Shown piece by piece: positions 693 to 63,146 of a stretch of 64,000 nucleotides of DNA (the stretch's first letter is position 1; each line of letters opens with the position of its first letter). The stretch comes from Clostridiales bacterium (GTDB lineage: Bacteria > Bacillota > Clostridia > Lachnospirales > WQUN01), in contig JAISWZ010000531.1 in NCBI GenBank assembly GCA_031270945.1, positions 13,473-77,472 of the forward strand. Reading direction: 5' to 3'. Below the pieces are notes generated by a model that saw nothing but the letters and a program-made list of their open reading frames with translations, had not been told where the DNA came from and made no database searches. Both the position numbers and the translations under genes were made by a program.

Positions 693-970
693 AGGCAAGA
701 GACATAAACAAGGGCGTACCGCGTTTGACATTATCAAGGGCATATAGCCAAAAATTTGAGAGCTAAAAAATGCCATAGCAAAAATCTAAATATAAAAATC
801 TAAATATAAAAATAGTAAATTATAACAAATATTAGCATTTGGCCATTCAATAGTGATTTGAACGCTAAAACACTGCGCGTTCAAGGGTTTTTTAACATGC
901 GCAAAGAGTTGACAGCAGATTTGCTATGCTATATATTTTGATTGCGGATTTTTTTGTTTTTATAATTACA

Positions 971-1000
971 AAAAACCGGCGCTTCCAGCGCCGGCTTTTT
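971..1000 (-). terminator. Rho-independent terminator after the alarmone synthetase gene (hairpin also readable on + strand)
   Basis: CCGGCGC-ttcca-GCGCCGG hairpin flanked by A5/T5 runs, about 11 nt beyond the stop at 1011. Confidence 0.7.
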
Positions 1001-1010
1001 GAAAAAGTGC

Positions 1011-1736
1011 TCATTTGTCCAACATTTCGTGATAAATGGACTGCATGCCTAGATCGATCTCAGCGAGCACCTCAGCGCAGTTCTTGAGCCGCTCCGTTGT
1101 TTCTTGGGGAACTTCAACGCCCCTCTTGTACCGGATCTCGTGCTCAAGGCTGGCCCACATGTCCATGGCTATGGTTCTTATTTGAATCTCCACAGGCACG
1201 TGCCCAAAGGATGAAGCGAAGGCGATTGGCGCCCTCACTACCAAGTGCAGGCTTCTGTAGCCGTTGTCCTTGGGCTTTGTGATGTAGTCCCGCTCCTTTA
1301 TGAGCTCTATCTCCTTGTTGGTCAGAAAAAAATCAGCGATGACATGGATGTCTTTGATGTACGGGCAAACAATCCGAAGTCCCGCTATGTCAGTTATGTT
1401 TGCCGTGATGTTGCTGATGGATGGCTCCAATCCCTTCCTGGAGAGCTTTTCAAGGATGCTCAAAGGCGACTTGAGCCTCCGCTCTATATGGTGTATGGGA
1501 TTGTGGTCATGCGTGGCCTGGAACTCATCGCTGACAATCTCAAGCATGGTTCCAACGCTTTTGATGGCGGCGTTGTAGTCAGAGTAAAGCTTGGTGATGG
1601 TTTCAAGCCGTTCGTCCTGCTTGTCGCCGCCTTTGATGTTAGCGAGCATAACGCTGACGAAGGAATCTTTTTCGTGCACCACATAATCCGCCTCCAGCTT
1701 CAGTGCCGTTGCCCTGCCGACTGGCGTCGGCATATG
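1011..1736 (-). CDS. small alarmone synthetase, RelA/SpoT synthetase-domain protein (GTP pyrophosphokinase family)
   Basis: Motifs GLRIVCPYIKD, GYRSLHLVV, PVEIQIRTIAMDMWASLEHEIRYK. ATG at 1736 is preferred because the longer TTG start at 1829 sits in a repeat half-site (LGYAL artefact) and has no SD. Confidence 0.8.
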   Translation of the reverse strand, partial: HMPTPVGRATALKLEADYVVHEKDSFVSVMLANIKGGDKQDERLETITKLYSDYNAAIKSVGTMLEIVSDEFQATHDHNPIHHIERRLKSPLSILEKLSRKGLEPSISNITANITDIAGLRIVCPYIKDIHVIADFFLTNKEIELIKERDYITKPKDNGYRSLHLVVRAPIAFASSFGHVPVEIQIRTIAMDMWASLEHEIRYKRGVEVPQETTERLKNCAEVLAEIDLGMQSIYHEMLDK

Positions 1737-1942
1737 GACGGCCCTTCGGAATCGATCTCTTGATCTGCTTCTATTATAACCTAAAAGCGCGGACAGGGCA
1801 ATACTGGCCAGAATAAGAGCATATCCCAAAATTTATGCGTTTGCATTCAGATATGCGCTAACGGAGCGGAACCAAAGCGTATTCCAACTATGACAGGCGG
1901 ATGATATTTATCGCAACTGAAAAGACAGCGGATCGCTCCGAC

Positions 1943-3307
1943 ATGAGCACGGGGCCTATCCTTAACAAGCTGCTCCTGTTGGCTGCGCCAATGATGGGAA
2001 CGCAGCTTGTGCAAATGCTCTACAACCTGACAGACATGTTCTGGGTTGGACGCCTTGGCAGCAATGAGGTTGCCGCCACTGGCGCGACAGGAATGTACAT
2101 TTGGCTTTCGGTGGCGTTCATGCTCTTTGGAAGCCTGGGCGCAAGCATCGGAGTCTCCCAGTCCATCGGGCGGGGAGATCTGGGCAAGGCGGAATCGTTC
2201 GCCCGCACCGCGCTGGCTTTGGCGCTGGCGTTCGGCTTGGTTTGCGGCTTGGTCATGTTCGTCTTCAAAAGCCCAATGGTGGCTTTTTTCGCTTTCAAGG
2301 AAGAAGATGTTTCAGAGCATGCCAGGCGATATCTTGCCATAGTTGCGGCCTCGGTGCCCTTTTCCTATGTGTCCGCCTCCCTTGCCAGCGTATTCAACGC
2401 TTCAGGAAGATCTAAGGTTCCGCTCGCTTGCAGCCTTGTTGGAACAGGCTTGAACGTCATCTTGGATCCTATTTTTATTATTGTTTTAGGTCTGGGAGTA
2501 TCCGGGGCGGCTATAGCCACGGTCATAGGAAACGCCGTAGGCGCCGCGCTCCTTTTGTTTTGCCTCAAGAGAAGCAAAAGCAGGCCCTTTGAAAATTTCA
2601 AGATATTCAAGAAGCTTGATTTCAAGGACGTCAGGCAGATCCTCAAATGGGCGGCCCCTGTTTGCCTTGAAAGCTTTCTCTTCACGTCCCTGGCCATGAT
2701 AACTTCAAGACGCGAGGCTTCCTTTGGCGCTGACGCAATGGCGGTAAGCCGCGTTGGATCACAGATTGAATCCCTCACCTGGCTTGTGGGCGCTTCCTTC
2801 GGCACAGCCCTCACAGCTTTCGCTGGGCAGAATTACGGGGCTGGAAAGTGGGATCGCATCCATAAGGCGTTTAAGATATCAAGCGTAGGCATGGCGGCCT
2901 ACGGGCTGTTTGTAAGCTCAGTGCTGGTGTTCGCGGGACGGTTCCTGTTCACGCTGTTCTTGCCTGATTCAGGGCTTGAGGATCTGAGCTCGAAGTATCT
3001 GTCAATAATAGCGATCTGCCAGGTCCCAGTCTGCATGGAGGCTACCGCCTCAAGCATGTTCCGTGGCCTGGGGAGGACATTGCCGCCCTCAATCGTGAAC
3101 ACCACATGCAACATCATACGGGTTCCGCTTTGCTACCTATTGTCCATGACATCCCTGGGCCTGGTAGGAGTATGGGCGGGAATATCCTTTGCGGCCTGCC
3201 TTAAGGGGGCCTGGTCATACCCATGGTTCTTCCTGTCAAGGAAAAGGCTTCAGCGCGAAAACCCGCTCGGGCTTAAAGCGCCGGATCCTGAGCCTGTTTC
3301 GGTTTGA
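1943..3307 (+). CDS. MATE family efflux transporter
   Basis: Polytopic membrane profile. N-terminus ILNKLLLLAAPMMGTQLVQMLYNLTDMFWVGRLG is the typical MATE start. The start could instead be 1901. Confidence 0.85.
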   Translation: MSTGPILNKLLLLAAPMMGTQLVQMLYNLTDMFWVGRLGSNEVAATGATGMYIWLSVAFMLFGSLGASIGVSQSIGRGDLGKAESFARTALALALAFGLVCGLVMFVFKSPMVAFFAFKEEDVSEHARRYLAIVAASVPFSYVSASLASVFNASGRSKVPLACSLVGTGLNVILDPIFIIVLGLGVSGAAIATVIGNAVGAALLLFCLKRSKSRPFENFKIFKKLDFKDVRQILKWAAPVCLESFLFTSLAMITSRREASFGADAMAVSRVGSQIESLTWLVGASFGTALTAFAGQNYGAGKWDRIHKAFKISSVGMAAYGLFVSSVLVFAGRFLFTLFLPDSGLEDLSSKYLSIIAICQVPVCMEATASSMFRGLGRTLPPSIVNTTCNIIRVPLCYLLSMTSLGLVGVWAGISFAACLKGAWSYPWFFLSRKRLQRENPLGLKAPDPEPVSV

Positions 3308-3892: not shown

Positions 3893-4198
3893 AGGCTTGC
3901 CCCCTAGAAACAAGAAATCCAGAAAAATCAAGACCAAAGCAAAGAGCGACAAATTCGCTCCATCGCCCGCAGACGCTTAGCGCCTATCGGGCCCGCGCAT
4001 ATAAAACCCAAGGCCGCATCTTAGCCCCTTGGGATATGCCGCAACTTGGGCTGCCCGCCATTTCCATTTGGACGCTCAAGCATACTGACGAGCGCTAGAT
4101 TAAGCATTTTCTTGCCGTTGGCAGAGGCATTGCTTGCTTCTGAGGCGACAAAATATTTGCGTTTAGCGTTTGCCAGTATAGAACAGGAGGCTCTTGGG

Positions 4199-7316: not shown

Positions 7317-9305
7317 GTGGCGCTGATGCTCACGCCGAGGACGGCCCAAATGCTAAGCGCGCTAGTGGACAGCGCAACTCCAGTTTCGGTGAACGAGTTG
7401 GGAGAACGGCTTGGAGTTAGCCGTCGAACTGTGTTTAGAGAGCTTGAGAGCGCTGACTCTGCGCTTAGGAGGTTTGGCCTTAGGCTGGGGAGCGTAAGCG
7501 GAAAAGGCATATCCCTGGAGGGCGACAGCTCAGGCTTCAGCAGGCTGAGGAAAGAGCTTGGCAAGCAGGGGGCGGAGCCGTCTAGCAGACAGGAGCGCTG
7601 GTCTAGGCTGGCGCTTGCGCTGGCGTTATCCGGTGTGCCCCAAAAGCTGTTTTACTACGCGGACATACTGAAAGTTAGCGACGCAACGATAAGCAACGAC
7701 ATGGATCGGCTTGAGCCATGGCTGGAAGAGTATGGGCTGGCTCTAACAAGGCGGCAGAGCTTTGGGGTGCTTCTGGAGGGCAAGGAGATCAGGATGAGGC
7801 GGGCTATCATGTCCGTGCTTCGCCAAAGCTCTGGATACCGCCTGGTCTGGGACAGCTTGTCCCCGGATCTGACCGTGGAGGACTTCGCGCCTTGCGCAAA
7901 GGCGGCAAGGGAGATATGCTCCTGGGCCACGCCAGAGTCCCTGGACTCGCTTGAGAGATACCTGCTTGTGACATCACGAAGGATAATGGATGAGCATGAG
8001 CTTGAAGACGAGACTCCGGGAGGAGAATTCCGGGGCATGGCGGTTCAGATCGCAAACGTTGTCGCAAATCACCTGCCCATAGAGTTTTCGCGGGGAGAGC
8101 TGGCGGCGCTGTCTCTTGAGCTTTCGGCTTGCAGGAACAACATGCTCTCGCGGGCTTCGGGCTGCGAGGAAAGCTTGCTAAAACTGAGCCATCAGCTGAT
8201 AGAGGCGTTTGACCCGGTGACCGCGCCAGCGCTGAAGCTGGATGAAGACCTGCTTCAAGGGCTTGGAGCTCATCTTAAGTCAGCGCTAATTAGGCTGAAA
8301 AACAAAGTGGAGCTTTTTGATCCGCTGTACGACCAGATTGCTGAGGGATACCCCGGACTGATGGAGAAGACCGCGAAAGCGGCCAGGCTTCTTTCAAAAG
8401 ACGGCTGGCTCCCGGAGAGCGAGGTCAGCTTTCTGGCCACGCACTTTGGAGGCGCGCTTCACAGGCTTGAAATGAGGGGCGCTCAGCGCAGAAGAGCCAG
8501 GATTGGAATCGTATGCGTAAACGGCATTGGAACATCGCATCTTTTGGCCGCGCAAGTGAGAAAGCACATTCCGGAGGCGGCTGTTGACGTGATAGGCTGG
8601 GAGTCCCAGCCCCAACGATTGGACCTTATAATAAGCTCTGTGCCATTGGAGAGCCCATCCGCTCCGTGCTTTATAGCTCCGCCATTCTTAAGCGACGAGT
8701 TCATAGTGAAGATCAGATCTGAGCTAAGCAGGATAACGTTAAGCTCTTCAGAGCCAGCGAGAGCGGCGGGCGGGGAGTCTACCCTAAGCAGGATTGAGAA
8801 GCTGAAAAACGTGGCCACAGACATCCAAGGCCTTTTGAAGAAGTTCTGCGCGATTTCAATACCAAGAAATGTGACCTACAAAGAGCTGGCTGAGATGGTT
8901 GGCCGGATGCTTGGAGAAGGGGAAAAGGGAGCGGAGCTCATTTGCGAGGGATTGCTGGAGCGGGAGCGCATAGCCAGCCAAGCGGTGCCAGAGCTTGGGA
9001 TAGCGCTTTTGCACTGCCAAAACGATGGAGTGAGCGCTCCTGTGTTTGCGGTTATAAGGCCTGAATCCGGAAATTTCACGATGAAAGGCTATGAAGGCAT
9101 TTGCGAGGCGATAGCGCTGCTGACCCCGAAGGGGTCCAACTCAGACAGGCTGGAGCTTATGGGCGCGATAAGCGCCGCGATAGTGGAGAAAGACGCGTTC
9201 TTGGAAGCGCTCAGGGACGGCGATGGCGACAGCATTCTCAAGTGCCTGGATGAAATATTGGCAGGGCATATGCAGGGGTTCATAAATAGGCACTGGAAAG
9301 ACTAA
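7317..9305 (+). CDS. mtlR: PRD-containing transcriptional regulator, MtlR/BglG family (HTH-PRD-PRD-EIIB-like-EIIA-like)
   Basis: N-terminal HTH (LGERLGVSRRTVFRELE), EIIB-like IGIVCVNGIGTSHLLA, EIIA-like C-terminus (ALLHCQNDG). Sits between the PTS genes. Confidence 0.8.
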   Translation: MALMLTPRTAQMLSALVDSATPVSVNELGERLGVSRRTVFRELESADSALRRFGLRLGSVSGKGISLEGDSSGFSRLRKELGKQGAEPSSRQERWSRLALALALSGVPQKLFYYADILKVSDATISNDMDRLEPWLEEYGLALTRRQSFGVLLEGKEIRMRRAIMSVLRQSSGYRLVWDSLSPDLTVEDFAPCAKAAREICSWATPESLDSLERYLLVTSRRIMDEHELEDETPGGEFRGMAVQIANVVANHLPIEFSRGELAALSLELSACRNNMLSRASGCEESLLKLSHQLIEAFDPVTAPALKLDEDLLQGLGAHLKSALIRLKNKVELFDPLYDQIAEGYPGLMEKTAKAARLLSKDGWLPESEVSFLATHFGGALHRLEMRGAQRRRARIGIVCVNGIGTSHLLAAQVRKHIPEAAVDVIGWESQPQRLDLIISSVPLESPSAPCFIAPPFLSDEFIVKIRSELSRITLSSSEPARAAGGESTLSRIEKLKNVATDIQGLLKKFCAISIPRNVTYKELAEMVGRMLGEGEKGAELICEGLLERERIASQAVPELGIALLHCQNDGVSAPVFAVIRPESGNFTMKGYEGICEAIALLTPKGSNSDRLELMGAISAAIVEKDAFLEALRDGDGDSILKCLDEILAGHMQGFINRHWKD

Positions 9306-9384
9306 GTGCATATCCCAAAATTCCAAAAAAGGTGCTTTAACGCGTTACTTTCACAAGCCATAAATTTAATTTTGGGATATGCTT
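9306..9384. repeat. MITE/REP-like palindromic element (class with internal GCTTTAACGCGT...CACAAGCC module)
   Basis: GTGCATATCCCAAAATT ... AATTTTGGGATATGCTT. Begins 1 nt after the mtlR stop. Confidence 0.85.
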
Positions 9385-15007: not shown

Positions 15008-15330
15008 GCTATCCCTCCATGATTCATCAGAATACTTGCTTTATCATTATTGCATGCAGACGTAAATTAGTCAATAGGCTCGAATTGCGAAAAATTGTGG
15101 CGGATTTTAAAAGCGGGGGAGGATGGCGTGATCCCGGGCAAACACAGGATTTTGTAGCGCAAGCCGGGCGGCGTTGGGTACGGTCAGGTTTCTTGCCTTG
15201 TCGCAAGTCCAGTAAAAGAATCCCACTAGTGTCGATGCTTCTACGCTTGATTTTGCAAGCCAAAAATTAATTTGGGATGCGCTCTTAGGCCTGCCTCTGA
15301 AGCCAGGCGAGCCCGTGCCGCAGTTTTTTC

Positions 15331-16381: not shown

Positions 16382-16510
16382 GAGCATATCCCAAAATTCC
16401 GAAATGGCGCCGGAAAAATCCTGGCGAATGCTTCAACTAGTTTGCTCGGGCTTTTACGAGCAAACATCCGGATTTTTCCGGTGCCTCGGATAAAATTTTG
16501 GGATATGCTC
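16382..16510. repeat. MITE/REP-like palindromic element (long form with CCGGAAAAATCC and GTTTGCTCG hairpin modules)
   Basis: GAGCATATCCCAAAATTCCGAAATGGCGCCGGAAAAATCC ... GGATTTTTCCGG...AAAATTTTGGGATATGCTC. Confidence 0.85.
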
Positions 16511-17581: not shown

Positions 17582-17615
17582 CACCCTTTCTGCATGCTGG
17601 TAGAACTGCACTTTT

Positions 17616-18020: not shown

Positions 18021-18036
18021 AGATCTGCAGAGAGCG

Positions 18037-18113: not shown

Positions 18114-18115
18114 CA

Positions 18116-18144: not shown

Positions 18145-18150
18145 AAAGAT

Positions 18151-46982: not shown

Positions 46983-47066
46983 GCCTGCTCTGTGTGGCAA
47001 GAACTCCTGCCGCTCTGGGAATGCGAAAGAAAAGCGGAACTGGCGTGAACACGTTGCTTTTTATAA

Positions 47067-47168
47067 AGAGCATATCCCAAAATTTTATCCGAGGCGCCGG
47101 AAAAATCCGGCGTTGAAGCATTCGCCAGGATTTTTCCGGCGCCATTTCGGAATTTTGGGATATGCACT
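47067..47168. repeat. MITE/REP-like palindromic element (near-perfect long palindrome) just after the cassette
   Basis: AGAGCATATCCCAAAATTTTATCCGAGGCGCCGGAAAAATCCGGCG...CGCCAGGATTTTTCCGGCGCCATTTCGGAATTTTGGGATATGCACT. Confidence 0.9.
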
Positions 47169-47469
47169 AAGAGATGCGTCTTGTGATTTACAAGGCTCAT
47201 CTCTTTTTTGTGTGCGACGATATTTTTGCTATTGCCGTCATGCCAGAATATTTTAATGCGAGCCAACAAAATCACTTGCAATAAGCTTTTGAAAGATGTA
47301 TGCTTTAACCGTAAAACAAATTTGGATGGAATTCTAGTCAGGTGCATATTCATGGAAATAACGGGTTGCGACGAAAATAACCTTCTAAACCTTGCAAACC
47401 CTGCAACTCATGAAACCCCTCTAAGCCCCCAAGCCGCAAGATGAAACAAAGAAATGGAGCTGAACAAAG

Positions 47470-51092: not shown

Positions 51093-51203
51093 AGAGCATA
51101 TCTTGAAAAAGTCCAGGTGTTTGCTCGCGGAATCCCGAGCAAACATAGTTAAAGCATCGCTGAGACTTTTTCGGCGCCTTAACGGAGTTTTGGGATATGC
51201 GCT
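51093..51203. repeat. MITE/REP-like element (left terminus degenerate)
   Basis: AAGAGCATATCTTGAAAAAG...GTTTGCTCGCGGAATCCCGAGCAAAC...GGAGTTTTGGGATATGCGCT. Confidence 0.7.
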
Positions 51204-51399
51204 AGGGCCTGCGGCTTATCGGTATCAATATATCACAGTTCCTTAAGGATTAATAGTGGAAAATAAGAGCCAAAAATCTCGGCATGCAGACGAGATTTTT
51301 GGCCTTTAGGCGAAAATATAAGGATGAGGCGTTAGCCTCATCCTTATATAAATCTTTTTCTTTTGAGCCAGCAACGGAAGGCCCTATGTAACGACTGGG

Positions 51400-52749
51400 C
51401 TATTCTTTGTCCAAGACCGCTACCACGGCGTTTTCCAGCCTGTGCTCCTTGATGTCGGTTACTTTTATGGCAAGGCCGTATTCCTCAATCTCAGGCGTTT
51501 GGCCGTCATCTGGAACAGTGCCCAAAATGCCAAGCACCATGCCAGCGAATGTCTGGTACTCCTCGTCAGGAAGGGGGATTGCCAAGCTTGCGGAAACCAA
51601 GTCCAGAGGGGCGCTTCCGCTTATCCTCCAGGTCTTGGAATCTATGCGCTCGATAAGGGGCTCATCTTCAGGTATGCTGGAGTCGTCTTCAAGATCTCCG
51701 ACGATCTCTTCCAGCAGGTCGTTCATTGTCACAACTCCGCTCATCCCGCCATACTCGTCAAGCACTACGGCAAAATGGTTCCGGCTCTTTTTCATGTTCT
51801 TGAAAAGAACGTCGGCATGAACAGACTCGGGAACAAACTGGGGCGGCCTTACCGCCTTCTTCAAGACTTCCTCCCTTGATCTCTCCTTAAGTCGGAAGAA
51901 GTCCTTCGCATACAAGACTCCGTATATGTCGTCCGCGCTTTCATCGCATATAGGATAGCAAGAGTAGCGGCTTTCCTCGATGGTGACCTGCCATTCCTCA
52001 TCGCTTTCCTCAAGCCAGAGCATAGACACTTCCGTGCGGTGAGTCATTATCTCGTTTGCCGTCTTGTCGTCAAACTCGAAGACGTTGTTTATGAAATACT
52101 TTTCGTCCTCGTCTATCGCGCCTTTCTCGCTTCCGACATCAACCATCATCCGGATTTCCTCTTCTGAAATCTCATCCCCTTGCGCGTGGGGGTCTACCCT
52201 CATAAGGCGCAAAAGGCCGTTTGTGGATTTTGTCAAAAGCCAAACGACAGGCGAGGCTGCCTTGGATAGGGCGTATATTAGGCCTGACAGCGCCAAGCCG
52301 AGCTTTTCAGCGTTTTGCATCGCCACTCTTTTGGGCACGAGCTCGCCAACTACCAATGAAAAGTAGGACAGAATCAGGGTAATGGCAACTATGGAAAACG
52401 GCTCAAGCGTATCCATGGAAACCATAGGGAAGATTCCTTGCAGCCACCCTGACAGCCTCTCGGAAAAGTTCCCCGCCGCGAAGGCGCTTCCCAAGTAGCC
52501 AGCCAATGTGATTCCGATCTGTATGGTGGCCAGGAACTTCGCTGGCTGGCTTGTGAGGCTTTTAAGCTTCTGGGCCCTCTTGTCGCCAGTGGCCGCCATT
52601 TTGTCCAGCTTGTTGTCATTTATTGATATTATCGCTATCTCGGCGCACGCGAATACCGCGTTGAGCGCCACGAGAGCCACTTGCAGCAAGAGCTGCGATA
52701 ATAGGGGATCATCTTCTGGCAATTCCATAGCCTCCAGTTCTTGCCTCAT
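51400..52749 (-). CDS. HlyC/CorC (CNNM/TlyC) family transporter: DUF21 membrane domain, CBS pair, CorC_HlyC domain
   Basis: LNAVFACAEIAIISIN.. DUF21 start, central IMTHRTEV../HFAVVLDEYGGMSGVVTMNDLLEEIVG CBS pair, C-terminal transporter-associated domain. Confidence 0.85.
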   Translation of the reverse strand: MRQELEAMELPEDDPLLSQLLLQVALVALNAVFACAEIAIISINDNKLDKMAATGDKRAQKLKSLTSQPAKFLATIQIGITLAGYLGSAFAAGNFSERLSGWLQGIFPMVSMDTLEPFSIVAITLILSYFSLVVGELVPKRVAMQNAEKLGLALSGLIYALSKAASPVVWLLTKSTNGLLRLMRVDPHAQGDEISEEEIRMMVDVGSEKGAIDEDEKYFINNVFEFDDKTANEIMTHRTEVSMLWLEESDEEWQVTIEESRYSCYPICDESADDIYGVLYAKDFFRLKERSREEVLKKAVRPPQFVPESVHADVLFKNMKKSRNHFAVVLDEYGGMSGVVTMNDLLEEIVGDLEDDSSIPEDEPLIERIDSKTWRISGSAPLDLVSASLAIPLPDEEYQTFAGMVLGILGTVPDDGQTPEIEEYGLAIKVTDIKEHRLENAVVAVLDKE

Positions 52750-52772
52750 TGCCGATGAACTGGCAAGCTCTT

Positions 52773-52832
52773 AGCGCATATCCCAAAATTCCATCTTTCA
52801 CAAGCCATAAAATTAATTTTGGGATATGATCT
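52773..52832. repeat. short MITE/REP-like palindromic element
   Basis: AGCGCATATCCCAAAATTCC...CACAAGCCATAAAATTAATTTTGGGATATGATC. Confidence 0.85.
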
Positions 52833-53237
52833 TAACCGATGACGCTTGCATGTGGAATTTTCTTATAGTTGCCCGCCTCAGAACCCAGTCGGGCCGCTCC
52901 CGCTAACGATAAGAATATTCTAAATCATGCCGATCATCAGTATAACCGAGCTTGCCCATGCGCCCTTTGCGGGCCGCTTTTGTGAAAAACGAAAAGCATG
53001 GCTTTCCGCTTGCTATTGCAGCGCACCCCAATCAAAACTAAGAGGCAGGGATACGCATTTAGTATGTCCCTTTAGAGCAGAGTTTCATTAACTAAAATCT
53101 CCCATGCGCCCTCTAGGGATTAGCCGCGCCTAGCGCGTCAAATCAAACGCATTTGCATCTCTCTCTTTCTGTCTGCGCGGCTTTGCCGCTAAATGCCGCT
53201 ATTGTACGGCCAGCAAAAGAACTAAGCGCTTATATAA

Positions 53238-53360
53238 GGCATATGCCAATCGAATCCCGGATTTGAAGCCCGGGCCGGTTTGCTTCTTGCAAAAGTCACG
53301 CGTTAAAGCGTCTCGATGACTTTGCTGCGCCTTTGATGGAATTTCGCGTATGCGCCTAGT
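53238..53360. repeat. degenerate, inverted copy of the GCTTTAACGCGT-class element
   Basis: GGCATATGCCAATCG...AAAGTCACGCGTTAAAGCG...GGAATTTCGCGTATGCGCC. The internal module is recognisable but the termini are decayed. Confidence 0.4.
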
Positions 53361-53548
53361 CTTGCCGCTCGCCAGCACCAAGTATCAATAATGAGTATAC
53401 TAGAAGACGCGAATAAAATCAACATTATGGGCACAAACCAAATTTATTTTTGTGGCGCGCCTTGAAATTTCGAGCCAAGCCCTTATTAAAATTTGCGCGA
53501 ATGCCGCACTTGCGCCATTTGGCTGAAAATGCAAATTTATGGTGAGTC

Positions 53549-53576
53549 TTGCGAATTGGCGTGGTTATGCTATAAT
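53549..53576 (+). promoter_or_regulatory. candidate sigma-A promoter of the SWIM protein gene
   Basis: TTGCGA - 16 nt (ending TGC) - TATAAT. Confidence 0.4.
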
Positions 53577-53748
53577 ATATTGGCGATATAAGAGAGTTGC
53601 GGCGTGTCCAAAAGCGTTAAAAAGGATCAAAAGGGCTTAAAAAGGCTTAAAATAAAGTCTTTTGCCAATTTCAGCGCCTGTTTTAAGCTTTGGGATGCCA
53701 TTTTTGCGCAAGGCGCGCAAACTTGCGCCTTGCATTGGGAGGATTGCC

Positions 53749-55353
53749 ATGAATCTGCGAAACTTTGAAGAATGCGCAGATCCGAAAGCGCTGGAGAGCG
53801 GGCATGCCTGCTTCTTGGGCAGCGCCATGAAGCCGGTCCGCTATGAGGGCGGACAATGGATATCTGCGCTTAAAGAGGATGAGGACTGTGAGGTCCGCGT
53901 CAATCTCACTGAAAAAGACGACATATTAAGCTCGGCATGCTCATGCCAGGATGGAGGGAAGCTCTGCTCGCACCAGGTTGCGGTAATGTATGAGCTCCGC
54001 AAGGTAGACAGGGCCAGGGCCCAACGGTTGCCTGATCTGGCGGCTAAGCTTGTGGAGCTGGACAAGCACGAGCTTGTGAGCCTGCTTCTCAGGTGCGCCG
54101 AGAGCGACAAAGAGGTAATGGCTGAGCTTATGATGATCAAGGCGGGAGAGCGCGAAGCGCTGGCCATGGCTCGGGAGATGGTGAAGGCCTCAATTGAGAA
54201 GCGCTCGGAGCGCGGCTACGTGAAGTACTCAGAAGTCGAAAGCGCCGTGAAAGGCGCCGAAAAGGTCCTGGATAACCTCAGGGGCAGCGGCTACAGCATA
54301 AGCGCTAAGATCAAGATCGCTGAAATTGTTATAGAAGAGATGATGGCGCTCCTGGGAGACGCTGATGACTCATCCGGCCACATTTGCACAATGGTTGAGC
54401 AGGCTGTTGAGATTCTTGCGGCCATGCCCGAAGAGCCTGGGTTTGACGACTTTGGAAGCATCTTTTCCATAGCTGTCAACTCTGTGTTTGACGGCTGGTC
54501 TGAATGGCGCTTCGCGCTCTTGGAATCCCTGATCCCCATGTGCCACAGCAAGGATCTGCGCGAGCGCCTGGAGGGCTGCCTGAACCAGATTTCAGGAAAG
54601 AAGAAATCGTCCAAGTACGACAAGGAAAAAGCGGAGCAGATGATGCACGACCTGATTCTGGCGTTTGACGGAGAAAGCGCTGCTTGGAGCTACATATGCA
54701 TGCACTTGTCCAATAGCGAGTTCAGGGAGATGGCGATAGAAGCCACGCTTGAGAAAAACGACGCTCAAGCGGCGCTAGAGCTTTGCCTTGCCGGCGAGCT
54801 CGAAGACAGCGAGCTCTCGGGCCTTGTAGAGAAATGGAAAAAGTTGCGCTACCGCGCTTGCGGGATCTTGGGGGACACCCAGTCCCAGAAGAAGATTGCG
54901 CTTGAGTTTGCCAGGGACAGCGACCACTTTTACTTCACTGAGCTCAAAAGGCTGACAGCTCCCGAAGAGTGGGCCAAGACCTTAAACAAGTTCCTGGATG
55001 ACCACGGAGCGAAGCTCAGGCAAAGCGTTCTGGAAAAGATCCTGGTCCAAGAAGGGCTCACTGCCAGGCTCATGGCATTTTGCAAGAAGCATCCCGAGAA
55101 GGTGACTACGCACCACAGGCTGCTTGTCCCGGAATTTGAGGAAGAAGCATGCGCCCTGTTTGAAGACCAGATCAAAGTGGAGGCCCTGAAGGCCTCAAAC
55201 CGCACCCAGTACGCCAGCGTCTGCAACCTGGTAGAGGAGTTCGCGAAAACCTTTGGCAAGCAGAGGGGCGAGAAGATCCTTCACAGCCTGCTTAGCGTTT
55301 ACAGCAAAAGAGCCGCCTTCAAGGAAGAGCTCAAACAGATCTCTTTGCTTTAG
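53749..55353 (+). CDS. SWIM zinc-finger domain protein
   Basis: CSCQDGGKLCSHQVAVMYEL (CxC..CxH SWIM motif) followed by a long helical-repeat region. ATG at 53749 after GGGAGG. Confidence 0.7.
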   Translation: MNLRNFEECADPKALESGHACFLGSAMKPVRYEGGQWISALKEDEDCEVRVNLTEKDDILSSACSCQDGGKLCSHQVAVMYELRKVDRARAQRLPDLAAKLVELDKHELVSLLLRCAESDKEVMAELMMIKAGEREALAMAREMVKASIEKRSERGYVKYSEVESAVKGAEKVLDNLRGSGYSISAKIKIAEIVIEEMMALLGDADDSSGHICTMVEQAVEILAAMPEEPGFDDFGSIFSIAVNSVFDGWSEWRFALLESLIPMCHSKDLRERLEGCLNQISGKKKSSKYDKEKAEQMMHDLILAFDGESAAWSYICMHLSNSEFREMAIEATLEKNDAQAALELCLAGELEDSELSGLVEKWKKLRYRACGILGDTQSQKKIALEFARDSDHFYFTELKRLTAPEEWAKTLNKFLDDHGAKLRQSVLEKILVQEGLTARLMAFCKKHPEKVTTHHRLLVPEFEEEACALFEDQIKVEALKASNRTQYASVCNLVEEFAKTFGKQRGEKILHSLLSVYSKRAAFKEELKQISLL

Positions 55354-55354
55354 G

Positions 55355-55450
55355 CGGCACCCAAAATTCAAAAAAGGGCGAAGGAAAAGTCATGCGATGC
55401 TTTAACGCATTACTTTTCCAAGCCCTATAATAAATTGTGGGATATGCACT
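55355..55450. repeat. MITE/REP-like element (GCTTTAACGC class, left terminus decayed)
   Basis: GCGGCACCCAAAATTC...GCTTTAACGCATTACTTTTCCAAGCCC...AAATTGTGGGATATGCACT. Starts 2 nt after the SWIM gene stop. Confidence 0.75.
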
Positions 55451-55558
55451 AATAAAAAAGATTGCCGCAAGCCATCCAGGATAAAAAGCGCCGCTTGGAA
55501 ATACCAAGACGGCGCTTTTTTGCCCCTTTCGAAGCTCGAGGTAATGGCGCTGGCTGCT

Positions 55559-55846
55559 CTATTGCTTCATCCCTACCTTCTTCATGAGATATTCGGAGAA
55601 CAAATCGATTACTGAAGGTCCTATCCAACCGCACAAACCCGAGAAGGCGAATGCGAGGTTAGCCTCGAGATGAATGCTCGCGGTTATGAAGTAGTTCATA
55701 GCGCCTATAAATGCTGCTATCGCGCAACCTTTGAGCAAAGCCACGTTGCCAAGCCTCTTGTTCTCCTTGCTGTACAGCTGCCTGGCAAGGCCCCCGAAAG
55801 ACGCGAGAAGAACCTGGATTAGAACCATGTATGCGGCTTCAATCAC
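55559..55846 (-). CDS. small 3-TM membrane protein (holin-like topology, unassigned)
   Basis: 95 aa with three hydrophobic helices and a basic C-tail. 4-nt overlap with the upstream ORF. Confidence 0.45.
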   Translation of the reverse strand: MIEAAYMVLIQVLLASFGGLARQLYSKENKRLGNVALLKGCAIAAFIGAMNYFITASIHLEANLAFAFSGLCGWIGPSVIDLFSEYLMKKVGMKQ

Positions 55847-56496
55847 GTAGCATCCTCCGTCCTTGTAGGTGGATCGGTCTTGTCGTCCTTTTTCAAGTTG
55901 GTTGTGATTTGGTTAACCAGGACAAAATCGAGGATTGAGGTGAGCATGACTATGAATATGCCAGCCATGAAAACCCCGTCAGCAACGCTGTCTCCAATCG
56001 CGCTTTCGGATACGCCTACCACTACGAGAAAGCGGTTTTTCAGTGCGCTGTCGGACGGTATCCATCGGTAATGGACCTTCATTGTCTCTCCGTCGACAAG
56101 AATCTCTGTGTCTCCGGATCTGCCGGTTGAGATGAAACGGCTTATCGTCAGATTCTTTAAAGGATCAAACTTCAGCTCCGTTTGCGGGGACAGCCGGTTC
56201 AGGCTGCCGTCATAAAGAACCGCCAAATCCGCTGACTGGTTTGAAATCATTGTTTCCACTGATATTTCTAAGTGCCTCTTGTAGTAAGCATATTCCTCTA
56301 TCCAGTCGTTGTCTTGCGCTATAAAGCCATCAGTGAGCTCTGACATCAGGTTGACTTCCCCTTTCACGGACCTGAATGCCGTCTTGAACCTGGAGTCATA
56401 GAACAGTCCGTGAAGTGTGACAAAGAAGAAGCTGAGCGCTATCATCAAGAGCAGAGGCAAAAGATAAATATATCTTAGAATTTTGCTTTTAAGCAT
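55843..56496 (-). CDS. bitopic membrane protein with an extracytoplasmic domain of about 140 aa
   Basis: N-terminal TM (YIYLLPLLLMIALSFFFV), second TM near the C-terminus. SD AGGGGG lies 8 nt upstream of the ATG. Confidence 0.5.
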   Translation of the reverse strand: MLKSKILRYIYLLPLLLMIALSFFFVTLHGLFYDSRFKTAFRSVKGEVNLMSELTDGFIAQDNDWIEEYAYYKRHLEISVETMISNQSADLAVLYDGSLNRLSPQTELKFDPLKNLTISRFISTGRSGDTEILVDGETMKVHYRWIPSDSALKNRFLVVVGVSESAIGDSVADGVFMAGIFIVMLTSILDFVLVNQITTNLKKDDKTDPPTRTEDAT

Positions 56497-56749
56497 GCCA
56501 TTTACCCCCTTTAGACAAATCCAGGCGGCAGCCCTTGCCCGCCTGGCGCGCGTTCGCGCGGCGGTGGTCTTGTTATCAATCTATGGCGCAAGCTGAAAAA
56601 AGTGATACATGTTGCGTTAAGATTTGTGGCAAGCGCTTCGCCAGGCTGAAGAGGAGGGTAAGGCGGGAGGCGTTTCGAAACTCATGGGTTCTTGGTTTCA
56701 TGAATTCTGGAATCGTCCTTAAAAGCGTGTTTAGGGCGAAGGCTTGTCT

Positions 56750-56870
56750 GAGCGCATATCCCAAAATTCCATAAAAGGTGCCGGATGCTTCAACAGTGTT
56801 TGTCTCGGGCTTCATCGGGCAAACTTGTGCGGCTTTTCCAGCGCCATAAAATTGATTTGTGATATGCTCT
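56750..56870. repeat. MITE/REP-like palindromic element
   Basis: GAGCGCATATCCCAAAATTCC...GTTTGTCTCGGGCTTCATCGGGCAAAC...AAAATTGATTTGTGATATGCTCT. Confidence 0.8.
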
Positions 56871-57327
56871 TAGGCTGTAAATGCGTTCGACCTTCGTCTT
56901 GAACGAAATTCTTTGTCTTTTGCATTAAGCGGGCGCATAGCGCCCGCTTATATAAATCGCCTTGTTGCTCGCATATGGCTAATTGCTGCTGTACAAATGG
57001 AATCGCGCGCGACGCGCGCTTAGCCGGCCGAGAGCGCATGCTCCAGGGCCAGCGGCCGCAAGGCTTTTCTTGAGTGCTTCATCCAATTGCCATATGTACG
57101 TCTTATATAAATTTTTTTATATAAGCTTTTTTAGGGCTATACGTGCGGGGAAGCCTCAGATTGCGCGGGCAATCTGAGCTTCCTCTTAACGCTAGCGCCA
57201 GGGCTTGCACCATGCCCTGGCAGCGGAGTTTTCGCTTTTTGGGTTGGCCGTAAAAGTTTAGGGAAAAATCAGAAAATGCCAGCTTGAAAATCTCCAAAAA
57301 TTAGAATCGTTATTAGCGCCATCCTCC

Positions 57328-58026
57328 TCAAGCCAAAAGGAAGCTGACTTCTTTAGCGTATTTCGTGAACCTGTCGATATCTGATTCCGTGAATTGCGTG
57401 TCTTTTTTCAAGGCGGTGTAGCCAATAGGCTTGGAGTCTTTGTCTCTAATGCTTACGCAGAGCGACATCTTTTCATCTTGAGCTCTTACAAGGTCATATC
57501 CGGATTGTGAATTCGCGGCTTGATCTTCCGTGTTTAGTATCACATATGGCGCGGTTTGGAGGTTCACCAGGAATTTTGAGAACAGGGAGGTTGAGATGTT
57601 CTGCATGATATGTGAGACAGGCAGCTTTTTCTCCCTGAAGATGTCATAAGTGCAGCTCATGAATTGGAAAGGCAGAAGCGACAGGTTTGGAGCGTTAGGA
57701 GTGTTGAATTCCATGATTGTGACCCTGTCGCCTCCGCAGTCTCTCATGATTCTATCCATAAGGGTTCTTATCTCGGCGTCTCTTCTCACCGGAGGAGATG
57801 AAGCTTCCTCTGCGGAGGCAGGCGTCTTGTTAGGGTCCGGCTGGGGCGTTTTGCTGTTCGCGTTGTTGTGCGTTAGCGCTTCAAGAGCGACTTTCTGCTT
57901 TGCCTTCAGCATGTTTATGCCTATATTGATGAACTGCAGCGCGGCGTACAGGAAAACGCCGTTTATCACTAGAGACACGCCGAGATCCTTGAATTGCGTG
58001 AGCATATCGTTTATTTCCAAATACAT
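57328..58026 (-). CDS. membrane-anchored protein: N-terminal TM helix, linker, C-terminal domain of about 150 aa (GAF-like pattern, unverified)
   Basis: LGVSLVINGVFLYAALQFINIGINML TM segment. Starts 13-16 nt after the amidase stop. Confidence 0.45.
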   Translation of the reverse strand: MYLEINDMLTQFKDLGVSLVINGVFLYAALQFINIGINMLKAKQKVALEALTHNNANSKTPQPDPNKTPASAEEASSPPVRRDAEIRTLMDRIMRDCGGDRVTIMEFNTPNAPNLSLLPFQFMSCTYDIFREKKLPVSHIMQNISTSLFSKFLVNLQTAPYVILNTEDQAANSQSGYDLVRAQDEKMSLCVSIRDKDSKPIGYTALKKDTQFTESDIDRFTKYAKEVSFLLA

Positions 58027-58042
58027 CACCTTCCTGTCTTTG

Positions 58043-58777
58043 TTATTTGGGCAGTTTAGACAGGCTTCTGCGGATCAGCGCTATGCACTGCTCCCTGGTC
58101 ACGGGATCCCTGGGGTTGGTTCCATCTGTGATGCCTTCGGAAACAGCCCATTCCCAATCAGCCTTCGCCCAATCTGATGGTGTCTGCGGGGTTGGCGCGG
58201 GAGCGGGAGCTGGCGCGGGCGCAGGTGCGGGCGCTGGCGCAGGAGCGGCTGTCGCGGCTTTGTAGGCGGCGACGATTTTAGCTTTGAGGACTGCCCAGTC
58301 TGACGGGTTTTTCACGTAATACAGAGGGCAGGACTTTCCTGTTACATCGTAGTGGCGCTTTACAGCTGTCTCTGGGTTGAACTTCCACCTTATGCACATG
58401 TCGACTACAAGCTCGATCAGGCTTTTGGTGGTCGCGTCGTTGAACTTGCCGTCTGCGGCAGGGTGGCAGCACTCTATGCCGATATAGGTTGAGTTGTTTG
58501 TCTTCGCCATTGTCGCGTATTCCGAAGAGTAGCTCTTCCCGGCGTGCATCGCGCATTCCTTTTCAGGGACGCACAAGAGAATCTCGCCATTTAGTCCGAT
58601 GATATAGTGCGCGGACACGTGGTTGCCGCCGGAGCCGGCTTCGAAATAGTTCCTGTTCGCCAAGGCGCTGGAGCCAGGGTTTCCTACGTAATGCACAAGC
58701 ACCCCTTTGGGGTTCAAAGTTGTGCCTGGTCTGCCGTGAGCGGAGCCAGGGGTCAACAGTTTGTCTTCAATCTTCAC
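58043..58777 (-). CDS. N-acetylmuramoyl-L-alanine amidase (Amidase_2/PGRP fold), endolysin-like, with (AP)n linker and SLH-like C-terminal module
   Basis: KGVLVHYVGNPG..NRNYF..VSAHYIIG..ECAMHAG..YIGIECCH..HYDVTGKSCP blocks. APAPAPAPAPAPAPAPTP linker. C-terminal WAVSEGITDG..PVTREQCIALIRR. GTG start after GGGAGATGG. Confidence 0.82.
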   Translation of the reverse strand: MKIEDKLLTPGSAHGRPGTTLNPKGVLVHYVGNPGSSALANRNYFEAGSGGNHVSAHYIIGLNGEILLCVPEKECAMHAGKSYSSEYATMAKTNNSTYIGIECCHPAADGKFNDATTKSLIELVVDMCIRWKFNPETAVKRHYDVTGKSCPLYYVKNPSDWAVLKAKIVAAYKAATAAPAPAPAPAPAPAPAPAPTPQTPSDWAKADWEWAVSEGITDGTNPRDPVTREQCIALIRRSLSKLPK

Positions 58778-59666: not shown

Positions 59667-59771
59667 AAACCCAGATCCAGATCCAAACCAAACCGAACCC
59701 AAACCCAAACCAAACCAAACCAAACCAAACCAAACCAACCCCAAACCCCAAACCCCAAACCCCAAACCAAA
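59667..59771. repeat. C/A microsatellite: (CCAAA)n merging into (CCCCAAA)4
   Basis: caaacccagatccagatccaaaccaaaccgaacccaaacccaaaccaaaccaaaccaaaccaaaccaaaccaaccccaaaccccaaaccccaaaccccaaacc. Confidence 0.9.
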
Positions 59772-60251: not shown

Positions 60252-60546
60252 AGTCTGTACCTCCTGTAGAGCATATCCCAAAAGCATTATATGTTTCGGA
60301 AAAGCTTTTGTTCTAAGCTTTTGCTCTAAGCTTTAGCCTTTCGTGCGCTTCGGGATTGGGGCATTGGCGAGCGTCAATCCAGAAATATCTCGCCGCTTCT
60401 AGCCGCTTCGTTAGTAAAAAAAGCTTCTTTATATTCTATGCTCGCTATTGGCATAATTTGCTATCATTCCTTCCAGTATATTTATTGAATGTTAATCAAT
60501 AATAATAATGGGAATATAAGGCTAAATTATGCTTGAGGTGACAGCC

Positions 60547-61527
60547 ATGGCTCTACGATTTTCAACATTCCTAATGGCGCTGGCGGCATACGCAAATATC
60601 GCGATATCCGCGCAGACGCCTGCATTTACGGAGACCCTGGAAAAAGAGGCGGTCGTGTCAGCCCCTTTGCTAAACATACGCTCAGGCCCTGGGATGCAAT
60701 ATCCAGTCCTCTCAGCGCAGAAGAAGGGGACTGTTCTCCAGGTGATAGGCTCAATGGGAGGCTGGCGGCTGGTTCTCCTTCCTGACAATTCGGTCGGGGC
60801 CGCATATGCCAAGCACTTGGAGACCACAAAGATGGACGAGCCCCAGAGGGTTGAGATCTTTGAGGACGAGGCGGAGATTTCTGAAGAAGGCTCAGAGCTT
60901 TTAGCCGAAAAGACTGATCTTTCGGACGGAACAGAGGAGCTCTCTGACGAAGGCTCAGAAGCTGATTCTCAAGCGGTCGACGCCGATCTGGACGCTGAGC
61001 AGGAAATAGAGGACGGCTCAAGCCTCGACAAAGAGCTGGTGTCCGGCAGGCCTTTCAAAGTGATGGCTCAAGGCGATGACGATGAATACGACCCAGCTGA
61101 AGAGATGTTCTATGACGAGGAAGCCGATCAGGAAGACTTATCCGACAGCGCCAGCATCTTCTTTGGCTTGGTGAACGAGGCCAGGATAAAGGAAGGGCTT
61201 GAGCCCTACACATGGGATGAGAGACTTAACAAAGTGGCCAAGCTGAAAGCCAACGACATGATTAAGAACAAATATTTCAACCATTCATCTCCTGAGTATG
61301 GCACCCCTTTCATAATGCTGAAGAACCTCGGGATACTGTACAAGACAGCGTCTGAAAACATCGCCAAGGACACGTCTCCAGAAAGCGCGTTCCAGAAGAT
61401 GATGGACAGTCTGCCGCACAGATCCAACCTGACAAGCGCCAGGTTCAACAAAATGGGCGTAGCCTCAAGCGATGAGCCTAATGAGGAAGGCAAGACCCTC
61501 ATGGTTCAGATTTTCATAGAAGAATGA
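60547..61527 (+). CDS. secreted SH3b domain - acidic linker - CAP/SCP (YkwD-like) domain protein
   Basis: Signal peptide MALRFSTFLMALAAYANIAISAQT. SH3_3-like VVSAPLLNIRSGPGMQYPVLSAQKKGTVLQVIG..GWRLV. C-terminal CAP block VNEARIKEGLEPYTWDERL..AKLKANDM...FNHSSPEYG...ENIA. ATG at 60547 after GAGGTG. Confidence 0.75.
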   Translation: MALRFSTFLMALAAYANIAISAQTPAFTETLEKEAVVSAPLLNIRSGPGMQYPVLSAQKKGTVLQVIGSMGGWRLVLLPDNSVGAAYAKHLETTKMDEPQRVEIFEDEAEISEEGSELLAEKTDLSDGTEELSDEGSEADSQAVDADLDAEQEIEDGSSLDKELVSGRPFKVMAQGDDDEYDPAEEMFYDEEADQEDLSDSASIFFGLVNEARIKEGLEPYTWDERLNKVAKLKANDMIKNKYFNHSSPEYGTPFIMLKNLGILYKTASENIAKDTSPESAFQKMMDSLPHRSNLTSARFNKMGVASSDEPNEEGKTLMVQIFIEE

Positions 61528-63050
61528 TCCAGGCCGGGAAAACAGAGGCGGCTTCGGTTCGCCAGCAGATCCTGCCCCAGGCGCTGGAGCAACTGACAAA
61601 GCTTCCAAAGCCTCCTCCCCCAAGCCACGGGCTGGCGTCTGCCGCAGTGACAGGAGACCTTAAGGCTGAGCTTGAAGAGCTTTTAAAGTCGCTGGGGCTA
61701 CAGGCAGGAAAGGAAAACTTGGAGCTTCTTGAAGCCTTGCTGGACAACGGATTTCCGCTAGACAAAGAGACTGTTTCAAAAATGCGCCAATACGCCCTTC
61801 TGTCCAAAGATCCTGGGAAGGCTGTCTTTTTTCTGAAAAACGGGGAAACTATGACCCAGAAGAGTCTTGGGCGATTGAATGCCGCGCTTGATGGAGCTGG
61901 CGGACTTGTGGTTGACTTTGAAGGGCTCTCAGAAGCGGTTGAAGGCCTGCCTCCGGGAGATCTTAAGAGCCAGATGGAAAAGCTTTTAAACGCAGCAATG
62001 GGTGACGCAGACGCTCAAGTCTCTGAAAAAGCAGCGCTTCCTCGCGCCGTGGCGGGGCGGGGAAGCGTAAATGAAACACATGAAGCTGGAGCGCAGGAGC
62101 TGGGATCTGATTCTCAAGAGGCCGAACTCTTGAAGCCCACAGGCACACCGGCTCAGGCCGCTGGACAGAAAGCGGACGCTGAGATCGCTAACGCGAATTC
62201 TAATTCAAAGGCGAATGCGGGCCTGGAAAAAGAAAGTGGAGCGGCGCCTGGTGAAGTTGAGGCAGATGGGTTCAAAGAGGTTGAGGCGAGCATAAAAACA
62301 GCGCAAGAGCCGGATCTGGAAGAAAAACTTGTTGACGTCAATAAAAAGGCGATAGCTCAAGCAAAAGCTTTGGGCAAGGATCAGATCGAGCCTGAAGAGA
62401 AGGGCCTGTTTGAAGTAGCCGAGATGGGGGCCAAAGATGGCCGCGAGGCTGGGAAAGCCATGCCTCTAGGCGCAAAGGCCAAGCGGTTCGCCATCAAAAG
62501 CTTGGGAAAGTCGCCCCAGGTTCTTGAACGTTTTCTTGAAGAGACAGTCAGGTTCCTCCAAGAAGCTAAAGAGATCGCAAGCGGAAGCCCTGAAGGGGAG
62601 AAAGTGAGAGAGGCTCTGGACAAGCTTTTGAGCCGCTTTGAATTTTTGGCCGAGGCCAAGTCCGCTGTCTTGGTTCAAGTGCCAGCGCTTTTAAATGGAC
62701 AGGCTATGCCTTTAGAGCTTTACGTGTTCCGGGAGAAGTCCGGAAAGAAGCTCAAAAAGGCGACGTCTGCCCTTTTGGCACTTGACTCGGCAAGGCTGGG
62801 GCGGATTGAGGCTTACGTGCAAAAGGCCGATTCTTCTGTAAGAGTGTCCTTTCGGCTTGAAACAGGCGAGGCGGCCAAGATCGCGCAAAAAGGGCAGGAA
62901 AAGCTTGCGCGTCTTTTGTCTGAAGCGGGGCTGTCCCTATCAGGCGTTACCTTTTGCCAGATGGAGAAGCCATTCGGGCTATTGAGCCGGGAAGAGGAGC
63001 TTTCCGGCGAGAAGGGGTGCCAGCCTTGCACATTGGAGGCGAGGGCTTGA
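61524..63050 (+). CDS. hypothetical protein with FliK (hook-length control)-like C-terminal region, unverified
   Basis: ATGA overlap with the upstream gene. Low-complexity Ala/Glu/Lys middle. C-terminal LELYVFRE...LGRIEAYVQKADSSVRVSFRLETGEAAK...LLSEAGLSLSGVTF resembles Flg_hook domains. Confidence 0.35.
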   Translation: MIQAGKTEAASVRQQILPQALEQLTKLPKPPPPSHGLASAAVTGDLKAELEELLKSLGLQAGKENLELLEALLDNGFPLDKETVSKMRQYALLSKDPGKAVFFLKNGETMTQKSLGRLNAALDGAGGLVVDFEGLSEAVEGLPPGDLKSQMEKLLNAAMGDADAQVSEKAALPRAVAGRGSVNETHEAGAQELGSDSQEAELLKPTGTPAQAAGQKADAEIANANSNSKANAGLEKESGAAPGEVEADGFKEVEASIKTAQEPDLEEKLVDVNKKAIAQAKALGKDQIEPEEKGLFEVAEMGAKDGREAGKAMPLGAKAKRFAIKSLGKSPQVLERFLEETVRFLQEAKEIASGSPEGEKVREALDKLLSRFEFLAEAKSAVLVQVPALLNGQAMPLELYVFREKSGKKLKKATSALLALDSARLGRIEAYVQKADSSVRVSFRLETGEAAKIAQKGQEKLARLLSEAGLSLSGVTFCQMEKPFGLLSREEELSGEKGCQPCTLEARA

Positions 63051-63092
63051 AACGCGTAGAGAGCGCTTGCCTGCGTTTTTGGGACATGACCT

Positions 63093-63146
63093 AGAGCATA
63101 TCCCCAAATTCCGAAATGGCACCATATATAATTTTGGGATATGCTC
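63093..63146. repeat. short MITE/REP-like palindromic element
   Basis: AGAGCATATCCCCAAATTCCGAAATGGCACCATATATAATTTTGGGATATGCTCC. Confidence 0.85.

Follow-up and report, generated by a model that had tools for sequence, protein, structure and literature searches.

The 64,000-nt stretch of DNA analysed here (positions 13,473 to 77,472 of contig JAISWZ010000531.1, assembly GCA_031270945.1, assigned to a Clostridiales bacterium; hereafter the window) carries a dense family of short, palindromic, non-coding repeats. The elements are mobile, because strains differ in their presence or absence and display clean empty sites. The best explanation, and a strongly favoured one, is that they are MITEs (miniature transposons bounded by inverted repeats), that is, non-autonomous elements moved by a transposase encoded elsewhere. 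The original prediction had left two options, non-autonomous transposon derivatives or structured elements acting on mRNA 3' ends; it is the first that is supported, by two insertion polymorphisms with clean empty sites and by a 3-bp target duplication.

The comparison of strains for presence or absence, which had been proposed as a check, provided two filled/empty pairs, each differing by one element plus 3 bp. The first involves the conspecific contig L022, which is 98-99% identical to window positions 51182-56915 (aligned in reverse, from 56915 to 51182) except for 100 extra bases that are themselves 96% identical to the window copy at 47068-47167. The empty site of the window reads GATTTAGAATATT and the filled site of L022 reads GATTTA[ GTGCATATC...GGGATATGCTC ]TTAGAATATT, with the element ends GTGC...GCTC, meaning that the difference is one element and a second TTA. 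The second pair concerns the 79-bp copy at 9306-9384, which is not present in the conspecific contigs L027 (JGI/NCBI) and L028 (Logan). These two read ...AAA GAT TGA GCGC..., and the window reads ...AAA GAC TAA[79 bp]TGA GCGC..., a net gain of 82 bp that corresponds to 79 + 3 bp. The target triplet in this case is the TGA stop codon of a PRD-regulator gene; the left triplet, now TAA, still serves as its stop, and the change preceding it is synonymous. At a third locus the window (55363-55455) has a truncated element where L022 (1460-1555), with the same sequence on either side, carries some 95 nt that are unrelated and not repeated, a polymorphism that reflects either an insertion with an adjacent deletion or a replacement. 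In the approximately 15 kb that could be compared between two strains, about six insertions are common and three differ, which indicates recent or continuing activity. Recent activity is also implied by the similarity of dispersed copies, that at 47068-47167 having counterparts of 99%, 96% and 94% identity at unrelated loci of contigs L025, L022 and L026, respectively. In the more distant contig L029, the intergenic regions are too diverged to reveal clean empty sites for the copies at 16382 and 17617.

The family was delimited by searching the window with the 17-mer GAGCATATCCCAAAATT, by a looser search with a 13-nt core and by direct reading of each site. With up to two mismatches allowed, the 17-mer has 25 matches in the 64 kb, against a chance expectation of 0.01 estimated from shuffles; none of 100 shuffles of the window gave 25 matches. 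The terminal inverted repeat has the core GCATATCCC and the full form G[A/T]GCATATCCCAAAATT; termini are 17 nt long and are perfect at both ends in the copies at 16382, 23081 and 35743. Thirteen elements with paired inverted termini, 35-129 bp in length, were recognized, and the DNA derived from the family accounts for about 1.2 kb (1.8%) of the 64 kb. The predicted lengths and intergenic placement were confirmed, all window copies lying between genes, at 5' and 3' gene ends alike. The predicted count of at least 14 full copies has to be lowered, since 13 of the 14 are real and have paired termini and the copy placed at 53238 turns out to be an interior fragment of just 24 nt (53286-53309). 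Regarding the roughly eight solitary or degenerate termini, four are clear (1817, 36330-36346, 44172 and 60269), three are decayed (4027, 15266 and 63074) and the one at 738 is doubtful. The individual sites are as follows.

1817-1833: solitary terminus, a perfect 17-mer with flank TAA; its internal TTG is the false start of the open reading frame (ORF) 1011-1829
4027-4041: decayed solitary terminus, CCTTGGGATATGCCG
9306-9384: 79-bp copy of the 35743 type, shortened by internal deletion, its insertion point coinciding exactly with the stop codon of the PRD-regulator gene 7317-9305
15266-15283: decayed solitary terminus, AATTTGGGATGCGCTC
16382-16510: 129-bp copy, the 100-bp type with a 28-nt GTTTGCTCG...CGAGCAAAC hairpin insert, both 17-nt termini perfect
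17617-17738: 122-bp divergent copy
22255-22289: 35-bp minimal copy with termini nearly touching, just upstream of an ogt-like gene
23081-23158: 78-bp copy, the 100-bp type with a central deletion, perfect termini and a perfect direct repeat TAG/TAG
35743-35841: full-length member (99 bp) of the second subfamily, with GCTTTAACGCGT as its core and both termini perfect, also in strain contig L030
36330-36346: solitary terminus, also in L030
36998-37050: 53-bp deletion form of the second subfamily, also in L030
44172-44188: solitary terminus in a strain-variable defence island, between the DUF1156 methylase and PLD-SNF2 helicase genes
47068-47167: 100-bp copy belonging to the commonest subfamily, located within the defence island at its right end
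51094-51202: 109-bp copy with decayed left terminus and the GTTTGCTCG hairpin module
52774-52831: 58-bp deletion form with a perfect direct repeat TTA/TTA, also in L022 and L023
52920-52922: empty target site TTA, within GATTTAGAATATT in minus-strand reading; in L022 occupied by a 100-bp copy with TTA on both sides
53286-53309: remnant of a second-subfamily element, 24 nt from its interior and without termini
55363-55449 (left end approximate): copy without the outer part of the left terminus
56752-56869: 118-bp copy with decayed right terminus, also in L022
60269-60285: solitary terminus
63074-63090: decayed terminus adjoining the copy at 63094-63146
63094-63146: 53-bp copy derived from the 100-bp type by deletion and flanked by a perfect direct repeat CTA/CTA

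The target duplication deduced from the strain pairs was also sought in the flanks of 16 complete copies, trying every boundary shift and duplication length. A single solution fits: the element starts at the G of GAGC and is bordered by a 3-nt duplication, the left flanks being 75% identical to the right ones and five of the 16 copies having perfect 3-bp direct repeats (TTA three times, TAG and CTA). When flanks are read from the outside in, A adjoins the element at 21 of 26 termini, T occupies position -3 in 16 of 26, and the full T-N-A is present in 12 of 26, giving a flank consensus of T-N-A abutting GAGC at both ends. These results bear directly on the possibility that the elements are MITEs of the IS630/Tc1-mariner type, which, like the RUP and Correia elements, would duplicate TA, as had been suggested from the TA seen just outside the termini. 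TA does lie directly outside one end in several copies, and, were an extra T counted as the last base of the element, the L022 insertion taken alone would be compatible with a TA duplication. However, TA never borders a copy immediately on both sides, and under a 2-nt model perfect repeats are obtained in two of 16 copies versus five of 16 for the 3-nt model. Moreover, the verified TGA target of the 9306 copy has no TA and its gain includes 3 bp, and symmetric ends require three nucleotides. A TA-duplicating mechanism is therefore very improbable, and the suggested TA duplication is abandoned in favour of a 3-bp one at T-N-A-like sites.

Alignments of the copies distinguish three related long forms that have a central RTGCTTYAAC motif in common. 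The first, of 100 bp, has CCGGAAAAATCC/GGATTTTTCCGG arms and is represented by the 47068 copy and by copies in L022, L025 and L026; the second, of 99 bp, contains GCTTTAACGCGT (35743 and 55363); and the third carries the GTTTGCTCG...CGAGCAAAC hairpin (16382, 51094 and 56752). The short copies at 23081, 63094, 9306, 52774, 36998 and 22255 align as internal deletions of these long forms, and the solitary termini probably arose through adjacent deletions. The modular interiors noticed earlier are real and consist of a mixture of subfamilies and deletions. In the 100-bp subfamily the two ends are consistently unlike (GTGC...CCGAAATGGC versus GAGC...WTATCCGAGGC), which recalls the distinct left and right ends found in an insertion sequence (IS).

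Because the repeats are inverted, whole elements fold into long hairpins, with free energies from -15 to -74 kcal/mol and z-scores from -3.6 to -11, the extreme values being those of the copy at 16382-16510 (-74 kcal/mol, z = -11). These hairpins, together with the dense intergenic distribution and the location of some copies after stop codons, are what would be expected of repetitive extragenic palindromic (REP) sequences or REPINs mobilized as single-stranded hairpins by a REP-associated tyrosine transposase (RAYT), or of bacterial interspersed mosaic elements (BIMEs) acting at mRNA 3' ends. Several observations speak against this option. The single termini are not self-complementary, form no hairpins and are devoid of a conserved GTAG-type head. 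Departures of the termini from consensus affect one arm only in 29 cases and both arms in two (the same locus in two strains), which means that sequence and not pairing is conserved, as expected of a protein-binding end. In the 44-64 kb section no U-tract comes after any element, none was scored as terminator-like and only one promoter-like match fell within elements. No Rfam family matches the elements, the sole Rfam match in the window being a tRNA. Copies are found upstream of genes, downstream of them and, in other contigs, inside coding sequences. The elements also duplicate their target, and REPINs and relatives of IS200/IS605 are not known to make a target duplication. The REP/BIME alternative is accordingly very improbable. 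The same uncompensated changes, along with the origin of short copies by internal deletion, argue for a transposase-binding DNA element and against both a structured RNA and a regulator site. Conserved, inverted 17-nt half-sites might in principle be bound by a regulator or a nucleoid protein, but the distance between them ranges from 1 to 95 nt, homology extends through the interiors instead of being limited to the termini, and insertions occur within coding sequences; a family of binding sites, contradicted by insertion polymorphisms with empty sites and target duplication, has a negligible probability.

If the elements are MITEs, the nature of the enzyme moving them has to be considered. 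With good confidence, this would be a putative DDE transposase making 3-nt staggered cuts. As to its family, published termini of IS5-family elements include GAGACCTTTGCAAAA (ISNme1) and GAGAC... (ISPg1/4) (PMC4596501, Table 2). By a weak criterion, the end GAGCATATCCCAAAA is identical to GAGACCTTTGCAAAA and GAGAC... at 9 of 15 positions, including GAG at 1-3 and CAAAA at 11-15. PIF/Harbinger elements, the eukaryotic relatives of IS5, generate 3-bp duplications (PMC12730594 and PMC2213677). Judged from the ends and the duplication, the chances are about even that the enzyme belongs to the IS5 family (IS1031-like) or to its PIF/Harbinger-like DDE relatives. As tabulated in ISfinder, members of the IS1031 subgroup of IS5 combine GAG ends with duplication of a 3-bp TNA target. 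The principal competitor is that the MITEs are moved by a DDE transposase of some other family whose duplications are short, for instance IS30 (with 2-3 bp), IS3 (with 3-5 bp) or a group not yet classified. Duplications of 3 bp also occur outside the IS5 subgroups, TAG and CTA fall outside T-N-A, and no transposase was found, all of which leave room for such an enzyme. On the other side are the GAG start and the CAAAA at positions 11-15, like those of published IS5-family termini, and the T-N-A/TTA preference typical of IS1031-like and PIF/Harbinger elements; for IS3 in particular, the family ends are TG...CA. An origin from another DDE family is thus a possibility to be entertained, with perhaps a chance in four.

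The window itself offered one candidate enzyme, the repeat-flanked SWIM zinc-finger protein encoded at 53662-55353, which was considered as a MULE-like transposase. It was rejected since only a SWIM match and no transposase domain could be detected in it, and also because MULE/IS256 duplications measure 8-9 bp. Domain searches found no transposase domain in any sizeable ORF of the window, in agreement with what had been predicted, and open frames across the elements specify short spurious peptides only, with no transposase coding capacity. A synthetic query composed of element peptides, run against targets of transposase length, retrieved only host proteins with element-derived extensions and no transposase domain. 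Likewise, when element ends were followed in the Logan-assembled run X1 in search of a long branch of high depth, only single-copy flanks and element variants were recovered.

The family is narrowly distributed. Proteins of the window are about 64-70% identical to those of Oscillospiraceae-like Clostridia, and exact or near-exact matches to the window occur only in termite-gut metagenomes (JGI 3300042605 and 3300042616, and run X1), sister-strain contigs being 98-99% identical. Two termite-gut "Clostridiales bacterium" metagenome-assembled genomes (MAGs) carry the family: one, to which cluster look-ups link the 98-kb contig that contains the window, with locus tags LBT59_, which run past 29510 and from which we infer about 5,900 genes, and its sister GCA_031283625.1 (LBC41_). 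The elements extend well beyond the window, element-derived peptides being found on more than 40 other contigs of these two MAGs. A spurious 74-aa ORF across the L022 insertion retrieves 49 public ORFs with the peptide VHIPKFRNG..KILANASTPDFSGASD.ILGYAL, on contigs of up to 138 kb and with differing flanks, and a second search added 19 longer proteins with element-derived extensions. Some copies have entered genes: an ABC permease of the LBT59 MAG (P0156) is truncated by an element, and an annotated 237-aa protein of the LBC41 MAG (P0182; L026 327-1040, JAITBK010000274.1) carries a complete element of 99 bp, read in frame, in its central part. The same contig has, at 1586-1883, a cluster of nested or adjacent decayed elements. 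Outside this narrow group, L029 (85-93% DNA identity) shows decayed traces only, and L024, a relative with 78% protein identity, has no element in 21 kb. The sister metagenomes X2 and X3 gave zero depth on the family, and plasmid and phage/viral contig collections gave no match or chance matches only. No match to specific patterns was obtained in the JGI metagenome contig collection, which evidently lacks the termite samples holding the element. A search of genome contigs with the bare 17-mer produced, among the matches listed, only chance coding-sequence matches in unrelated phyla, and a literature search with the terminal sequence turned up only primers and no paper containing it.

Within run X1 the terminus is exceptionally abundant, the summed word depth on it being about 13,000 at 95% likeness and 17,000-21,000 at 90%, compared with about 5-8 (about 6.5) on single-copy flanks. 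Depth on the terminus is about 2,000 times that of single-copy sequence, and the ratio corresponds to some 2,000-3,000 termini per genome equivalent; since these values add up the depths of many contigs, they do not equal copy numbers, and only their order of magnitude was retained. Extrapolation of the window density (26 termini per 64 kb) to a genome of about 6 Mb gives approximately 2,400 termini. Taken together, the data suggest about 1,000 elements per genome, as an order of magnitude only. Very high depth was also recorded, in three runs and from unrelated organisms, at 32184-32256 (an A-rich low-complexity spacer) and 59690-59760 (a CCAAA-type repeat within an ORF); these peaks are not signs of repeat families.

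A number of points weigh against the reading set out above. Neither the window nor seven related loci (about 32 kb) nor 68 peptide-bearing proteins yielded an autonomous element or a transposase with these termini, and the plasmid, viral and JGI contig collections likewise yielded none. The assignment to IS5 has the end sequence and the duplication length as its whole basis. The perfect TAG and CTA duplications depart from T-N-A. The flanks of the 9306 copy are today TAA on the left and TGA on the right, so that either two nearby substitutions or an older polymorphism must be assumed. Finally, the estimate of about 1,000 copies could include elements of other hosts of the same gut.

On the MITE explanation, the 17-nt terminal inverted repeats would be the binding sites of a transposase whose gene lies elsewhere; this enzyme would excise or copy the element, which would then insert at a 3-nt staggered cut, usually at T-N-A and most often at TTA; repair of the cut would duplicate the three nucleotides. 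An insertion placed exactly at a stop codon would be harmless because TAA and TGA both fit T-N-A and the stop is restored by the duplication, which explains why copies abut stop codons. One such case, at 63146, is only apparent, given that the adjoining minus-strand ORF is spurious: long ORFs overlap there on opposite strands (63147-63959, minus; 63178-63999, plus), and the plus-strand ORF, with PAS domains, is the real gene. Effects on neighbouring genes, namely transcript hairpins, false starts and occasional disruption, are by-products and not a designed function. The false starts agree with the predicted N-terminal extensions beginning MGYAL, as a TTG within the terminus provides the start of ORFs 1011-1829, 16910-17629, 36612-37010 and others, and public gene calls include "...ILGYAL" peptides derived from the element. 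A bolder version of the MITE explanation envisages that the family expanded very recently, in a burst, to some 1,000 copies or more, amounting to about 2% of a genome of about 6 Mb, which would place it among the densest MITE families in any Firmicute. The burst would perhaps be driven by an uncatalogued IS group or by a single-copy or lost transposase, with TAA/TGA stops as safe landing pads and occasional in-frame insertion into proteins such as P0182. This scenario is rather unlikely as a whole.

Other features of the window and of the related contigs were noted in passing. The defence island at 37103-47250 is BREX-related and encodes a DUF499 ATPase, a DUF3780 protein, a DUF1156 methylase and a PLD-SNF2 helicase. 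It is absent from the conspecific contig L030, where about 130 nt of other sequence join 37102 to about 47252, and in run X1 its depth is about 0-3, with 5-10 on the flanks. The island encloses the 47068 copy and the solitary end at 44172; the idea that the repeats bracket and move it was rejected, its borders (about 37103 and about 47250) not coinciding with element termini. A small lysis-type cassette, possibly a prophage remnant, spans 55843-58777 (L022 101-1354) and comprises a phage holin-like gene (PF16083 in L022), an N-acetylmuramoyl-L-alanine amidase gene (58043-58777) and genes for proteins of unknown function. The gene for a secreted ricin-lectin protein at 18151-19701 has no counterpart in L029, which joins the flanking genes directly. 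At 51273-51312, 40 bp (TTTTCGCC...GCCGAGA) unrelated to the repeat family are absent from the Logan contig L023 of run X1. A 38-nt segment shared at 89% identity between the unrelated loci 52861-52898 and L026 1074-1111 may represent another small repeat family.

When compared with known systems, the elements form a new family of a well-known kind, unusual in its density and revealing no new mechanism, and they are not sequence relatives of the Correia, RUP, BrickBuilt or Tourist elements. Close parallels are found in the IS5-derived BrickBuilt/MITEPgRS elements of Porphyromonas gingivalis, whose termini match ISPg1/ISPg4 (PMC4596501). These are likewise short, non-coding, intergenic and strain-variable, with GAG-initial inverted repeats and no transposase remnant inside. 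However, sequence similarity to them does not go beyond GAG...CAAAA, a parent IS is known only in their case and a consistent 3-bp duplication is seen only in the present family. They number 10-20 copies, against the estimated 1,000 or so here, and 10-20 is also the number of copies of a MITE that bacteria typically carry (PMC4596501). Tourist-type MITEs of the PIF/Harbinger group and the IS1031 subgroup resemble the present family in their short inverted repeats and their 3-bp duplications at TTA/TAA-like (T-N-A) targets, as well as in the amplification of deletion derivatives to very high copy number. Tourist elements, in contrast, have eukaryotic hosts, and TAG and CTA duplications occur here; relatedness to either group would be putative. 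The Correia elements of Neisseria and RUP of Streptococcus pneumoniae make up dense families of elements some 100-150 bp long, in which full-length copies coexist with internally deleted ones, and they are also intergenic, strain-variable and able to form hairpins in transcripts. Their sequences are nevertheless unrelated; they duplicate TA, are associated with IS630-type or unknown transposases and reach about 100-300 copies. Finally, the REP/REPIN-RAYT systems and BIMEs of Proteobacteria are dense, palindromic and intergenic, with hundreds to thousands of copies, but REP units are hairpins with a conserved tetranucleotide head and lack target duplication, neither of which applies here.

The family has practical consequences for the study of its hosts. 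Gene calls in termite-gut MAGs are corrupted by false MGYAL starts, by dozens of spurious hypothetical proteins and by truncated or interrupted genes, and the family breaks short-read assemblies. It also provides a sensitive strain marker, because about three of nine compared sites differ between strains that are 98-99% identical. From the biological standpoint, the 9306 copy offers a clean case of an insertion exactly in a stop codon with the codon restored by the target duplication, and the family as a whole indicates that a MITE burst of plant-like intensity is possible in an uncultured gut Clostridium.

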